In this document: piece by piece, positions 1-64,000 of the stretch
How positions within the stretch are numbered: position 1 is the first letter of the stretch
How the letters are laid out: each line of letters begins with the position of its first letter
Assembly: GCA_011911785.1 (NCBI GenBank)
Contig: GCA_011911785.1_4084.1
Source of the DNA: a phage
Strand: one strand, 5' to 3'
Length of the DNA stretch: 64,000 nt
The notes under the pieces: model-generated
Seen by the model: the letters and a program-made list of their open reading frames with translations, nothing else
Databases searched by the model: none
Told to the model about the DNA's origin: nothing
Made by a program: the position numbers and the translations under genes

Positions 1-76
1 AGATGCCCAATTTTACTTTGACCTTAGTGATTATGATATCATGTTGGATCATATTAATCGTGTAGGAGAATTGTAA
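1..76 (+). CDS. 3' end of upstream gene (partial), C-terminus resembles FQxS-family members
   Basis: Frame from nt 2 reads DAQFYFDLSDYDIMLDHINRVGEL*; FYFDL tail resembles C-termini of 76..579 and 1799..2269; stop overlaps next ATG (TAATG). Confidence 0.5.
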   Translation, partial: DAQFYFDLSDYDIMLDHINRVGEL

Positions 77-579
77 TGCCTGATATTAGCAAACTTAATT
101 ACGATGAGATTGAACAGTACGCAAAAGATATCTACGAAATCTATGATGAATTCAAGAACAATACTACAGCATTTGGTTCAATGTATTCTCGAAAAAAGAG
201 TCTTAACAGGGATAGGAAAAGTTGTTTAACATATACACAGAAATCGGGCGAAATGATGGAAATCTTCTGTGAATCATTTGATGATAGTGAATATAGTGTA
301 GGCATGAATTACCTATCTTACTCAAAAAAAGGTGAAGTTGTAGTAGATTTACGTCTTGAAAATGGTCGTAATAGAAAGAGTAGTATCAATGAAGAAGATG
401 TAAAACTAATTTCTGAAGAAGATTACTTTCAGTTAAGTACTACTATGAATATGTTGGTATTGAATGTCATAACACTCTACGGTTTCCTTCGATATAAGCA
501 TGAAATTGAAACTGACTTCTATTTTGATTTGAATGATTTTGAAGTATGTAAGGGATATCTAAATGGGAAAAGTAGTTGA
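76..579 (+). CDS. hypothetical protein, FQxS-motif paralog family (A)
   Basis: 167 aa ORF; core motif EEDYFQLSTT; tandem with paralogs. Confidence 0.7.
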   Translation: MPDISKLNYDEIEQYAKDIYEIYDEFKNNTTAFGSMYSRKKSLNRDRKSCLTYTQKSGEMMEIFCESFDDSEYSVGMNYLSYSKKGEVVVDLRLENGRNRKSSINEEDVKLISEEDYFQLSTTMNMLVLNVITLYGFLRYKHEIETDFYFDLNDFEVCKGYLNGKSS

Positions 580-901
580 TATTGAGTACATGCACGATGG
601 TGATGAAATTTTCATTGTCCAAAAAGAATGCAAGGCTGGACATTGGGTTATCTTCTCTGTAGAAGAGGATGAATCCATTGTATCTTTTATTTCTACTAAA
701 CACAAAGATACGAATTTAGAACTTCTTTACAATTTAAGTGAAGAAGAACTATTTCAAATGAGCACTGCATTTGAATATGATGTATACGAATTATTAGATG
801 TACAGAATATTTTGTTGGAGTCTCTTCAGAAACTAAAACACAAAGATTTATTTCTGGTTAAATCATTTATGATGCACAAATTTACACTTGAGGTGGATTA
901 A
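563..901 (+). CDS. hypothetical protein, family A
   Basis: 112 aa; motif EEELFQMSTA. Confidence 0.65.
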   Translation: MGKVVDIEYMHDGDEIFIVQKECKAGHWVIFSVEEDESIVSFISTKHKDTNLELLYNLSEEELFQMSTAFEYDVYELLDVQNILLESLQKLKHKDLFLVKSFMMHKFTLEVD

Positions 902-1332
902 TGTATTTTGAAATTATAAAAGTTAAATCAAAGGCTTTACTTAATACAAGATTTCAAACGTATGGTTGCACTCATAGTGTAATGCTGGATGATAATAACG
1001 AATTGTATTATTCTAAAGTAACACAACCAGTACCGGAGAATAAATTCTATATCTATTCTCACAAAGATAACTCACAATATGACATTGAGAATCTCGCTGT
1101 AATGCCACCTGACGAGCTATTTCAGTACAGCTTAGTATGTCCTTACCGTGGTGATATTGACCTTCTCAAGAAGATTCAGGAGGGTTTAATGGACTTTGTG
1201 CCTAAGTCTAGCCCTGAATATTTTTCAACTAATGTAGAGTTTTTAAAGATCGAAAGAGAAATTCCTGATTATATGCTTAGTGATGATGAGTTCTACGATA
1301 AGCATTTCCCAGGAAAAAAATGGAGAGATTAA
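901..1332 (+). CDS. hypothetical protein, family A
   Basis: 143 aa; motif PDELFQYSLV; start overlaps previous stop. Confidence 0.7.
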   Translation: MYFEIIKVKSKALLNTRFQTYGCTHSVMLDDNNELYYSKVTQPVPENKFYIYSHKDNSQYDIENLAVMPPDELFQYSLVCPYRGDIDLLKKIQEGLMDFVPKSSPEYFSTNVEFLKIEREIPDYMLSDDEFYDKHFPGKKWRD

Positions 1333-1802
1333 TGACATTCCAGGAAGATATTGATTTTGCAAAAAAGATTTACAAAATTCATCTTATAATGGAAAGTACT
1401 GAGTTCCAAAATCGTTCATATGTCGATAAGATTAAAAGCTGTGATAAAAGTTCATTTGTCATAAAACTACCTACATTCAAATCCAAAAGAGAGGCCATCT
1501 ACGCTACGATTTATGATGATTCAGAATACAATCTAATGGATTTGTACATGACCTTTACCCCAGGGAATACACTTGTATGTTACTTCCAATGGGAGGAAGA
1601 GACAATTGTACTTGATAATATAGGTTCTTATAAGCCTACTGAAGAGACGCACTTTCAGTTATCTTTGATCTATACAGAAGAAACAGTTCGTGCTATAATG
1701 TTGTATTCATATCTCAATAGTGTAAATGCCAGTGCTTTCTATCTGGATTTAGTACATCTTGAACTTATTGAGGAATTACTTGCAGAGGAACTTTCTCTAT
1801 GA
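1320..1802 (+). CDS. hypothetical protein, family A
   Basis: 160 aa; motif EETHFQLSLI. Confidence 0.7.
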   Translation: MERLMTFQEDIDFAKKIYKIHLIMESTEFQNRSYVDKIKSCDKSSFVIKLPTFKSKREAIYATIYDDSEYNLMDLYMTFTPGNTLVCYFQWEEETIVLDNIGSYKPTEETHFQLSLIYTEETVRAIMLYSYLNSVNASAFYLDLVHLELIEELLAEELSL

Positions 1803-2269
1803 TAGAATCCGAAGAGTTAGTACTGGATGGTCACGTTATCCGATACGATTCATATGCGGCGTGTATTGATTTTGCAAAGATTTTGATGAAGATTTATCAT
1901 GCTGGTAATAATGGTAAATTTGACAAAGTGTTTGAAAAATCATTTACTCATAATGCATGGTATTACGCTGGTACTGAAGTTTTAAACATAGGGGAATCAG
2001 TGTGTGATAATGAATCATTCATGAGCTTTGATTACTATTATATTCAGTACCATTCATACCTTGATAAAATTTGTGTTCATGACAGTGATTTTAAAGTATT
2101 ACCTTCATATATTGAAATATGTAATGAAGAGATGTACTTTCAAAACTCATTATTATATACAAGTAATATACTTTTACTATCTGTGATTGTAACATACTTA
2201 AGAAGCGAAGGACTTAATTCCTTTTATATTGATTTGGATTTCTTTAATACATTTTTGGAACATTTATAA
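1799..2269 (+). CDS. hypothetical protein, family A
   Basis: 156 aa; motif EEMYFQNSLL; ATGA overlap with upstream gene. Confidence 0.7.
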   Translation: MIESEELVLDGHVIRYDSYAACIDFAKILMKIYHAGNNGKFDKVFEKSFTHNAWYYAGTEVLNIGESVCDNESFMSFDYYYIQYHSYLDKICVHDSDFKVLPSYIEICNEEMYFQNSLLYTSNILLLSVIVTYLRSEGLNSFYIDLDFFNTFLEHL

Positions 2270-2278
2270 AGGTGCTAT

Positions 2279-62309: not shown

Positions 62310-62854
62310 TTCGAGAAGTACCTCTAGGTGAGTATGGTAAACGAGCAAACTTTGTATTCTGTTACTTCTTTGCTCGAAATTGTAACCCATATAAAGGTTA
62401 TGATTTAAATGATATCCCTGTTGTGAATCTGGTATTACTCCAGCTTCGTTGGGATGGTTTACTGGGTGGTTGTGGTGGAACAGTTGAAGATACCGATGCC
62501 ACCTTAGAAGATGCACTATTCCGTGAAATTCAGGAAGAGATGGATTATAATATTTTCATCGAACAACTGAAACCATTGAAAACTTACGAACTATATCCAG
62601 GAGCACATACTCATAGCTATAGTTATGAAGTTACTTACGAAGAATTGAAAGCGATTCGCGATGGATACAGTACTGCTAAACATGCAAGTGCAGAAGTGGC
62701 TGGTGTTAATTTATGTCACATTTCTCGTTATTCAAAGGGACAAAACCGAGAAGCAGGATATAATAATCTTATGACACAAAACTTCATAGGAACTGCTAAA
62801 ATGGAATTAGAACATCTTGTTCAATCCGAGAATTTACTGATTAGTTACTTATAA
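62306..62854 (+). CDS. possible divergent Nudix-like hydrolase
   Basis: 182 aa; GGTVEDTDATLEDALFREIQEEMDY approximates Nudix box with deviations; ATGA overlap with Sir2 gene. Confidence 0.3.
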   Translation: MIREVPLGEYGKRANFVFCYFFARNCNPYKGYDLNDIPVVNLVLLQLRWDGLLGGCGGTVEDTDATLEDALFREIQEEMDYNIFIEQLKPLKTYELYPGAHTHSYSYEVTYEELKAIRDGYSTAKHASAEVAGVNLCHISRYSKGQNREAGYNNLMTQNFIGTAKMELEHLVQSENLLISYL

Positions 62855-62865
62855 GGTGAATTATA

Positions 62866-63198
62866 ATGTCTTACTCAATGTTTCTGGATGATATTCGTGA
62901 TCCTGAAAAGTATTATCCAAATCAAAACATGGTTTTATGTCGTGATTATGAAAGTGCATGTGCTTATGTAAATGAACATGGTTTACCACAATTTATTAGC
63001 TTCGATCATGACTTAGGTGATGTTGGGGAGGATGAAAAAACAGGGTATTCATTTGCAAAATTTCTAATTGATTATATGGTCGAAAACAATATCAGTACTG
63101 GATTCGATTATATTATTCATAGCAGTAATCCTGTAGGGAAGGTCAACATTGACACATACTTACAGAATGGTTTTAGATTTTTGAGAGGGGACAATTGA
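62866..63198 (+). CDS. hypothetical protein
   Basis: 110 aa ORF. Confidence 0.55.
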   Translation: MSYSMFLDDIRDPEKYYPNQNMVLCRDYESACAYVNEHGLPQFISFDHDLGDVGEDEKTGYSFAKFLIDYMVENNISTGFDYIIHSSNPVGKVNIDTYLQNGFRFLRGDN

Positions 63199-63494
63199 CA
63201 AAACATCATATACAAAGCTTTATAATCACAAGTGTTATATTTCTTGTTGTGTTTTGGTTCTTCTATCATCAAGATCAAACCAAGCACCGAAATATATACT
63301 ACCGTACTGCTGTTGTTACTGACATAGGGCAGTGTGAAGAAAATACATGTTCATTTACTTATAAGACTGAAGATGGGTCTATTAAGTATGGAGCATCAAG
63401 GAAACCAGTTTCAGTTGGGCAAATTGTTTACAATGAATGCTGGACAGAAAAGGCTCGCGGTCACCGCTGCTACGTTGACTATGAGCCACAATAA
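63195..63494 (+). CDS. membrane protein, hypothetical
   Basis: 99 aa; N-terminal hydrophobic helix. Confidence 0.5.
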   Translation: MTKHHIQSFIITSVIFLVVFWFFYHQDQTKHRNIYYRTAVVTDIGQCEENTCSFTYKTEDGSIKYGASRKPVSVGQIVYNECWTEKARGHRCYVDYEPQ

Positions 63495-63557
63495 GAAGTG
63501 TCTGAGTCTATAATCTACCGTAGAGCACAAGGATGTGCTCATAACTCAAGGATGTTT

Positions 63558-64000
63558 TATGAAAAAATACACAATTGACACAAACGTACTACTATCCGAT
63601 CCAAATGCAACCGTAGCATTTGATGGGGCAGCAGTGATTCTACCATTCACTGTTCTTGAAGAACTTGATTCAATCAAGAGCCGTAATGTTGACGTATCAC
63701 GTGATGCACGTTTCGCAATCCGTAACATCGATGCAATTCTGAAAGATGCTACTCATGAAGAAATCAGCAGTACTGGTGTTAATATTGCCAATATCCACAA
63801 AAATATGGATGCATCCAGTAAGCTATTCGTTATGACGAATGAAGAAGCTGAAGCACTTATTCGTATGGGCGGCAGTGAAGATAAAGTAGAAACTCTACTT
63901 AAAAGTACTGTACCAGATGACAAAATCATTCTAGTGGCTTTGGCATCACAATCAGTACTGGTAACTCGCGACATTAACATGCGTATCAAAGCAATGAGCT
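63558..64000 (+). CDS. PIN-domain protein, likely N-terminus of PhoH-like ATPase (partial, runs off window)
   Basis: ATG 63558; MKKYTIDTNVLLSDPNA...AAVILPFTVLEELDSIK typical of PIN domain of PhoH2/YlaK-like proteins; no stop before window end. Confidence 0.55.

Follow-up and report, generated by a model that had tools for sequence, protein, structure and literature searches.

A highly iterated AGTACT palindrome in Rak2-like jumbo phages and in two clades of temperate Enterobacterales phages

Introduction

The closest described counterparts of the element reported here are highly iterated palindrome 1 (HIP1) and its alternate palindromes (GCGATCGC) in cyanobacteria, short words that recur across the whole genome in great excess, about one copy every 350-1000 bp. 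Selection on HIP1 and a link to nucleoid structure have been argued for (PMC5861425). Here we analyze the hexamer AGTACT in a 64,000-bp stretch of phage DNA (contig GCA_011911785.1_4084.1 of GenBank assembly GCA_011911785.1; the whole stretch is hereafter called the window), the abundance of which had been pointed out in an earlier note made from the letters alone. Like HIP1, AGTACT is short and hyper-abundant, occurs in all reading frames and in intergenic DNA, reshapes codon and dipeptide choice, may be retained at orthologous positions above background and has one-mismatch variants that cluster at the outer positions. Unlike HIP1, it is AT-rich, resides in phages rather than cellular chromosomes, is avoided by the host, has no cognate methylation that could be detected in relatives of the phage and shows an all-or-nothing split among related phages. 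AGTACT matches the descriptive definition of a highly iterated palindrome and appears to lack the cognate methyltransferase that has been proposed as the mechanistic hallmark of such words (PMC4390886, PMC5861425).

Other described words resemble AGTACT in part. Chi (GCTGGTGG), the DNA uptake and uptake signal sequences (DUS/USS) and the FtsK-orienting polar sequences (KOPS) are likewise short words found at high density inside and outside genes, with an established or presumed role as protein-read signals of self-identity or guidance; USS/DUS also constrain proteins and sometimes form terminator stems. These words are asymmetric and strand-biased and have known readers (RecBCD, ComP and FtsK), whereas AGTACT is a palindrome without orientation information. 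The Escherichia coli Chi is itself essentially absent from the window (one copy). The Dcm/Vsr very-short-patch (VSP) skew of CCWGG and its neighbours in E. coli, a product of directional mismatch repair, is, like the enrichment of AGTACT, a frame-independent, DNA-level bias toward a palindrome-like word, but the VSP effect is well under 2-fold, concerns a known mismatch type and leaves depleted neighbours, while AGTACT is enriched 8-13-fold with none depleted. The site bound by SlmA (GTGAGTACTCAC) has the identical core and belongs to the same host family; this 12-bp palindrome has a dimeric TetR-family reader that requires G1, T2 and a purine at position 3 (PMC3020112), whereas the phage word prefers C and avoids G at position 3. 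Phage nick motifs (WACTRTGAC in Pseudomonas phages tf and Rembedalsseter, and the nicks of T5) resemble AGTACT in being clade-conserved and both intra- and extragenic; they differ in being asymmetric, confined to one strand and physically nicked, with about 10-13 copies as against about 900-1200 copies of the palindrome. To T4 hydroxymethylcytosine (hmC) the resemblance is functional only, namely genome-wide discrimination of phage from host, a proposed use of AGTACT. The T4 mark is chemical and sequence-independent, whereas AGTACT would be a sequence word, and the Rak2-like clade is a distant T4 relative without hmC.

Neither full-text literature searches nor the genome papers of RaK2, CBB, phAPEC6 and Sharanji yielded an earlier description of AGTACT over-representation. 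The feature is real, large and apparently undescribed.

Results

An exact count gave 180 copies of AGTACT in the window (GC content 34.2%) against 21.7 predicted by base composition, an 8.3-fold excess that comes close to the "around ten-fold" estimated in the earlier note. The over-representation claimed there, across coding and non-coding DNA alike, was borne out by 100 dinucleotide-preserving shuffles, which contained 18.04±4.45 copies and never more than 35. All the individual sites that had been located by hand are genuine, the hairpin copy lying at 30667 and the two intergenic ones at 28643 and 41656; the four listed in the DNA ligase gene are accompanied by a fifth at 37980. The top over-represented 6-, 7- and 8-mers of the window are AGTACT, CAGTACT and CAGTACTG, the last of which is present in 50 copies where 0.63 are expected (79-fold). 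The highest-order (order-4) Markov ratio for AGTACT is merely 1.2 because the nested words GTAC, AGTAC and GTACT already hold the enrichment. Spacing between sites is Poisson-like (mean 355 bp, coefficient of variation 0.98; Kolmogorov-Smirnov test against an exponential distribution, p=0.36), which rules out a regular spacing or phasing at short range.

The flanks of the word are palindromic as well. C occupies position -1 in 94 and G position +1 in 89 of the 180 sites, with T-rich and A-rich sequence, respectively, further out, giving an extended consensus of TTC-AGTACT-GAA (full form TTCAGTACTGAA) in which G at -1 and C at +1 are avoided. Variants with one mismatch at an outer position (NGTACT and AGTACN) are themselves enriched 1.6-2.7-fold, position-2 and position-5 variants occur at about 0.8-1.2 times expectation, and the deamination neighbours AGTATT and AATACT stand at 0.83-1.11 of expectation; no one-mismatch neighbour of AGTACT was found to be depleted.

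The pressure acts on the DNA word itself. Codon-aware null models were built on 99 open reading frames (ORFs), which take up 93% of the window. When synonymous codons were shuffled gene by gene, leaving the proteins unchanged, 41.9±5.5 copies resulted against the 166 observed in coding sequence (z=22), and shuffling codon order yielded 24.1±4.8. A codon-preserving null had been named beforehand as the test that could refute the enrichment, and the ratio of observed to expected is clearly not near 1. As the earlier note had stated, sites occur in all three frames: 92 read AGT-ACT, 55 xxA-GTA-CTx and 19 xAG-TAC-Txx, and the remaining 14 are non-coding or at gene boundaries. No fewer than 92 of the 173 Ser-Thr dipeptides in the window are written AGTACT. 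Ser-Thr and Val-Leu dipeptides are over-represented 1.5-fold while Thr-Ser and Leu-Val are not, and the DNA word has therefore shaped the proteins. Sites are distributed evenly along genes, with no effect of position within the gene. An RNA-level motif was rejected, the flanks being symmetric save for ordinary sense-strand composition. Because all frames and non-coding DNA are hit, the flanks are symmetric and the count lies 22 standard deviations above a protein-preserving shuffle, the pressure is on the duplex word and not on a peptide or a codon preference, as the earlier note had proposed. AGT, ACT and GTA are indeed common codons in the window, and Ser-Thr and Val-Leu are frequent dipeptides. 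That the word is a by-product of amino-acid composition, codon usage or dipeptide preference nevertheless has practically no chance of being right: it is refuted by the synonymous shuffle and by the enrichment of three frames and non-coding DNA together, and homologous head genes of two temperate phage clades described below spell Ser-Thr as AGTACT in 72% (clade A) and 5% (clade C) of cases.

The window belongs to an Asteriusvirus: Escherichia phage A4 (355 kb), of the same genus, matches it at 98.8% identity, and PBECO4, fEgEco12 and further Rak2-like jumbo myoviruses do so at about 80%. All sampled members of this group are enriched in AGTACT, from 4.7-fold in the structural region of Klebsiella RaK2 through Salmonella Munch (7.2-fold), Cronobacter GAP32 (8.1-fold), A4 (8.5-fold), Serratia BF (8.7-fold), Pectobacterium CBB (8.8-fold), fEgEco12 (9.0-fold), the 44-kb region of PBECO4 homologous to the window (9.3-fold), XbC2 (9.6-fold) and Erwinia Kaldavass (10.1-fold) to 11.6-fold in Erwinia Hallingskeid. 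The core is constant across the jumbo clade while the flank preference drifts between genera: Asteriusvirus and RaK2 favour C/G, and Mimasvirus, BF and Munch favour A or C paired with T or G. All jumbo groups compared avoid G at -1 and C at +1. The nearest outgroups by ligase similarity carry no such excess. Vibrio phage ValKK3 has 14 copies against 13.0 expected (1.07-fold), and phage T2 (41 kb) has 2 against 14.1 (0.14-fold). T2 shares GC content and host range with the window, and its depletion suggests that a restriction pressure specific to AGTACT operates in enterobacteria. In E. coli K-12, a 50-kb sample contains 3 copies against 11.6 expected (0.26-fold), so that the E. coli chromosome has about 45 times fewer sites per kb than the phage (about 2.5-2.8/kb).

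The complete genome of PBECO4 contains 870 copies of AGTACT where 116 are expected, including 189 of CAGTACTG. Density varies along it, from 1.6-1.9 sites/kb in the structural and replication gene regions through 3.1/kb in the region homologous to the window to 3.9/kb in genes and 9.7/kb in non-coding DNA of an early region of small ORFs (125-158 kb). The word occupies 40-62% of the synonymous opportunities offered by Ser-Thr, 29-57% of those offered by xVL and 21-54% of those offered by [KQE]Y[FLSYCW]. Inside the densest 5-kb bin (40 sites), about 2 kb at 151.7-153.7 kb have no annotated ORF and include a tandemly repeated unit, CTTTCTATATAGGAGTACTATTATTCAGTACTGAATCAA; this segment is a candidate non-coding RNA locus, origin or regulatory array.

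On the minus strand of the same early region, between 133 and 152 kb, PBECO4 has 17 near-identical promoters of the form AAAAAGTACTTGCAA-N16-(G)TATAAT-gttttacatcga, and the AAAAAGTACTTGCAA-N16-TATAAT arrangement recurs in 121Q-like and RaK2 loci. Some of the PBECO4 promoters have a second CAGTACTG abutting the -10 element. Across the PBECO4 genome, TATAAT-like hexamers peak 1-2 bp and 21 bp after AGTACT (47, 40 and 41 occurrences against a background of about 19), and beyond ±1 the sequence around the word holds less than 0.05 bit per position. These arrangements, together with the density maximum in the early region, are what one would see if AGTACT were a promoter-associated element (an UP-like element, a -35-adjacent box, a supplier of the extended -10 TG or the operator of an early regulator) with the intragenic copies as by-products. 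We give this explanation little credence. A fixed distance to a -10 or -35 element holds for about 17-45 of the PBECO4 sites and just 3-5% or so adjoin a -10-like element, whereas about 85% lie inside genes, evenly spread and in both orientations. Published promoter analyses of CBB, GAP32 and RaK2 omit an AGTACT box, and the small temperate phages described next are without the arrangement yet more enriched.

Scanning IMG/VR for ATTCAGTACTGAAT retrieved, besides contigs of jumbo phages, a set of contigs of about 26-35 kb with a GC content of about 0.41 in which AGTACT is enriched 13-20-fold. The gene content of these small phages (about 32 kb) comprises a terminase of the lambda-gpA type, a portal, a protease-capsid fusion, tail genes, a large serine recombinase and just 10 or so other, non-structural genes. 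Relatives are integrated in chromosomes of Leclercia, Yersinia enterocolitica and Escherichia sp. ESNIH1, and in Leclercia the AGTACT density jumps at the border of the integrated element; no close relative was found in the INPHARED phage collection or in complete E. coli genomes. A terminase phylogeny divides the phages into three clades of equal GC content. Clade A (54 loci) holds 3,582 copies against 275.8 expected (13-fold), with sub-clades graded at 4-7-fold, 9-11-fold and 13-20-fold. Clade B (5 loci) holds 218 against 25.7 (8.5-fold), and clade C, with a very common E. coli prophage, holds 3 against 33.6 (0.09-fold; 5 loci). Clade B is as distant from clade A as either is from clade C, its terminase being just about 42% identical to that of clade A. 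Closely related phages are thus either saturated with AGTACT or purged of it. Both enriched clades have the flanks of Asteriusvirus: position -1 is C in 53-54% of sites and G in 7-12%. The same word with the same flanks is equally enriched in two temperate clades whose genes are almost all different from those of the jumbo phages, and the part of the earlier note that took the recognising activity to be phage-encoded is no longer a safe assumption.

The small phages offer some further points of contact with the jumbo phages. An HNH endonuclease family (phrog_953-like) is present in clades A and B and in GAP32 and in none of the five clade-C loci. A 951-residue tail protein of clade B (Escherichia sp. 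ESNIH1 locus, 18198-21053) aligns over its full length with PBECO4 gp063 at 50% identity, which indicates gene exchange with Asteriusviruses; its neighbour has a segment in common with PBECO4 gp064. Some of the small AGTACT-rich phages encode a putative adenine methyltransferase with an NPPF motif (5880-7232 and 6047-6847 in their loci) that is 30-37% identical to one of Mimasvirus XbC2 (XbC2_125; 17689-18597 in the XbC2 locus), and this enzyme may correspond to the TGCAT modification of Kaldavass described below. Members of clade A include prophages of Leclercia sp. GLN_9, Leclercia sp. 29361 and Yersinia enterocolitica; among the few accessory genes of the Yersinia prophage is a reverse-transcriptase gene (Pfam RVT_1, 7796-9073), possibly a retron or abortive-infection-type defence cargo. 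Clade C phages have the same architecture as their sisters; the E. coli prophage (GCA_030203045.1) has no site in 21.9 kb, and its terminase is present on hundreds of contigs. The idea that the small phages are satellites using T4-type late promoters was dropped, as none of those promoters was found in them.

Positional conservation was compared at several distances. When the window is compared with fEgEco12 or PBECO4 (about 80% identity), 58-64% of AGTACT sites are retained, as opposed to 30-33% of control hexamers; between genera the proportions are 42-54% and 16-22%, a 2-2.8-fold excess. At close range, 7 of 146 sites differ between the window and A4 by loss where 8.3 losses are expected. 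Variants that destroy a site among 26 clade-A genomes number 56 against 46.8 expected, which is no deficit, and those that create one number 3 against 1.4, an underpowered comparison (22 sites) that is not significant.

Chemical modification and nicking of the word, both raised in the earlier note, were examined through published data on two relatives. Native-versus-amplified nanopore sequencing of Hallingskeid and Kaldavass detected modification at GATC and CCWGG in both and at TGCAT also in Kaldavass (Dougherty et al., PMC11780129), the data covering virion DNA only, with motifs chosen by manual inspection. No strand breaks were reported in virion DNA of either phage by that study, which did detect nicks in another phage (PMC11780129). 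AGTACT, enriched 10-fold or more in these two genomes, would be hard to miss as a modified motif at >1,000 sites per genome, and the published nanopore data argue against both a methylation site and a nick site. The earlier note's suggestion that the Dam-like methyltransferase of the window (Table 1) might target the motif fares no better: the enzyme falls in the Dam family of Pfam, the nanopore data on the relatives show no modified AGTACT, and it is probably neither reader nor writer of the word. The second Asteriusvirus methyltransferase (PBECO4 gp416) is of the C5 type and 78% identical to one in Hallingskeid. The PF01555 methyltransferase of Mimasvirus and Eneladusvirus, also considered, has no detectable sequence similarity to gp416. 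A role as target of methylation or another base modification, after the HIP1-methyltransferase model, accordingly seems to us scarcely probable. It would be in keeping with the co-occurrence of cyanobacterial HIP sequences and cognate methyltransferases, with the 2-4 DNA methyltransferases encoded by phages of the clade and with the reported resistance of RaK2 DNA to many restriction enzymes (data not shown in PMC3622015), but the modified motifs in Hallingskeid and Kaldavass, which are relatives and not this phage, equal in number the methyltransferases predicted there and leave AGTACT out. Still less credible, and very improbable indeed, is a transient nick or cleavage by a phage endonuclease such as an HNH enzyme, serving recombination-dependent replication or clamp loading and resealed before packaging. 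HNH endonuclease genes are frequent in every enriched lineage, and the jumbo phages encode DNA ligase and T4-like recombination proteins. Besides the lack of strand breaks reported for virion DNA of the relatives, however, a palindromic nick site would produce double-strand breaks, and conversion initiated at a site should eliminate that site rather than multiply it.

Two further identities were tried and rejected. None of the 870 PBECO4 sites is fully compatible with SlmA, and SlmA half-sites number 8 on either side where 13.6 would be expected; G is the base least often found at -1, and GAGTACTC occurs just once in the window. A VSP-type signature is also missing, with no neighbour word depleted and no VSP-like sink.

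Discussion

These analyses establish (C/A)AGTACT(G/T) as a highly iterated palindrome that is kept dense by pressure on the double-stranded word. The pressure fills about half of the synonymous opportunities and alters dipeptide usage in several lineages of Enterobacterales phages, while hosts, T2 and sister prophages purge AGTACT. Our tentative preference is to see in the copies a dense array of sites bound by a symmetric DNA-binding protein; the density of these sites would tag phage DNA against the AGTACT-poor host DNA. The sites would be of low individual value and would be read genome-wide by a two-fold-symmetric, sequence-specific protein that is neither a methyltransferase nor a nickase of virion DNA and that may be phage-borne or supplied in trans. 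Single sites would be dispensable and density would count, and the array could serve as an identity tag that confines some function to phage DNA; examples would be nucleoid organisation, control of early promoters and protection from nucleases that attack the host chromosome. The array is favoured on a number of grounds. The palindromic flanks fit a symmetric reader of the duplex, and their drift from genus to genus is what a co-evolving reader would produce. The word has a conserved placement at early promoters, is densest in the early region and is about 45 times as frequent in the phage as in the host. The precedent of HIP1 and the data against modification and nicking in relatives are also in its favour. 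Several points weigh against it. The specificity of a repair enzyme would account just as well for all the evidence from symmetry and flanks, and the identity-tag function is pure inference. Individual sites are under no detectable short-term constraint, either between the window and A4 or among the 26 clade-A genomes. The excess retention between genera could simply reflect an equilibrium filling of about 50% of conserved Ser-Thr and Val-Leu; with roughly half of such positions filled in each lineage, the long-range excess is no proof of per-site selection. Lastly, the HNH family apart, no reader protein or gene family common to the jumbo phages and both small clades was found in a search that profiled part of the non-structural region of the small genomes, with Pfam and PHROGs silent on most proteins.

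Nearly as likely as the binding-site array is a molecular drive without function for the organism, in which context-specific mismatch repair or biased gene conversion, VSP-like, methylation-free and perhaps encoded by a mobile gene, pushes near-cognate sequences toward AGTACT, so that the word builds up wherever constraint on the proteins permits; Elhai's model gives HIP sequences exactly such an origin (PMC4390886). A drive would be consistent with the turnover of individual sites at about the neutral rate, with the density peak where constraint is lowest (early non-coding DNA of PBECO4, as against its structural and replication regions), with the lower density in variable, probably recently acquired tail-fibre-like genes and with the graded sub-clades of the temperate phages. 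The split between clades A and B on one side and clade C on the other is also what would be expected of a transferable gene that is present or absent, and the HNH family follows that pattern. The drive leaves the conserved placement at early promoters unexplained, however, and no neighbour is depleted, the outer variants being in fact enriched; a Vsr-like gene was not identified, the excess of gains in polymorphism is non-significant, and no known repair system makes a 6-8 bp palindrome without a methylation cue. A word directed at the host, by which unrelated phages converge on exploiting or evading an Enterobacterales-wide factor (a DNA-binding protein, a defence, or the replication or transcription machinery), strikes us as rather unlikely, although it best explains how gene-poor phages with so few non-structural genes came to the same solution. 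Three lineages with almost no common genes have the same word and flanks, and all of them have Enterobacterales hosts (E. coli, Klebsiella, Serratia, Cronobacter, Salmonella, Erwinia, Pectobacterium, Leclercia and Yersinia); the strong avoidance of AGTACT by host, T2 and the common E. coli prophage further indicates that the word matters in this host family. On the other hand, SlmA, the one host protein known to have a site with the AGTACT core, is excluded, flank preference differs among phage genera on related hosts, and carrying a restriction-type target has no evident benefit. A little more doubtful again is a combined scheme in which AGTACT density would be a self mark, read by a protein of the Rak2-like phages to tell their DNA from the AGTACT-poor host chromosome and replacing the hmC of their T4 relatives, resident low-GC temperate phages of the same hosts would mimic it to survive a takeover by jumbo phages or to profit from it, and most other enterobacterial phages would purge it.

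Should a protein prove to read the word, AGTACT would be the first genome-wide identity tag based on sequence to be described in phages. The role of highly iterated palindromes, a question 30 years old, could then be studied in a tractable system, either a virulent phage of 350 kb or a prophage of 32 kb, both growing in E. coli-like hosts, with sister phages that are naturally free of the word to serve as controls. If biased repair writes the word, a mobile enzyme would have imprinted its recognition word genome-wide, enough to change protein sequences. In practical terms, ScaI and RsaI will shred AGTACT-rich genomes, AGTACT is a simple k-mer marker for these lineages in metagenomes, and host prediction and gene-transfer detection that rely on codon usage or composition are distorted in such phages.

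Other features of the window

The coordinates of features in the window are collected in Table 1. The terminator-like hairpin with a central AGTACT is a single case and not the usual context of the word.

Table 1. Features of the window that bear on AGTACT
Feature	Coordinates	Strand	Basis or remarks
Dispersed array of 180 AGTACT, including 50 CAGTACTG	1..64000	.	Counts, shuffles, flank table
Dam-family DNA adenine methyltransferase	19752..20279	+	Pfam PF05869, E=8e-33
Two TTCAGTACTGAA-type sites flanking promoter-like TTGACT-N17-TAAACT	21224..21262	+	Example of the promoter-adjacent minority
RNA ligase (rnlA-type) gene, 5 sites (27769, 27907, 28129, 28381, 28613)	27499..28644	+	Identity from A4 and PBECO4 annotation of the homologue
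Terminator-like hairpin AAAGGGATCAGTACTGATCCCTTT followed by TCTTTT	30658..30681	+	AGTACT central; GUAC would form the loop
DNA ligase gene, 5 sites (37980, 38145, 38369, 38538, 38853)	37879..39297	+	Site count
Six consecutive paralogous genes with Ig-domain or tail-fibre-like matches	44617..59478	-	137 to 1,881 residues; strain-variable

The block of six paralogous genes has about 1.7 sites/kb, the lowest density in the window, against about 3.1/kb in the rest; it is also the part of the window least conserved relative to A4. A tandem paralogue array considered at 76-15467 was unsupported by BLASTP, which returned one related pair only. Avoidance of the restriction type falls on words other than AGTACT, which is opposite in sign to a depleted palindrome: GCGC has 0 copies against 53.7 expected, GATC and CTAG stand at 0.58 and 0.42 of expectation, and 26 of the 64 six-base palindromes are absent from the window, among them CAGCTG, CCATGG and CTGCAG (Markov expectation about 7 each).

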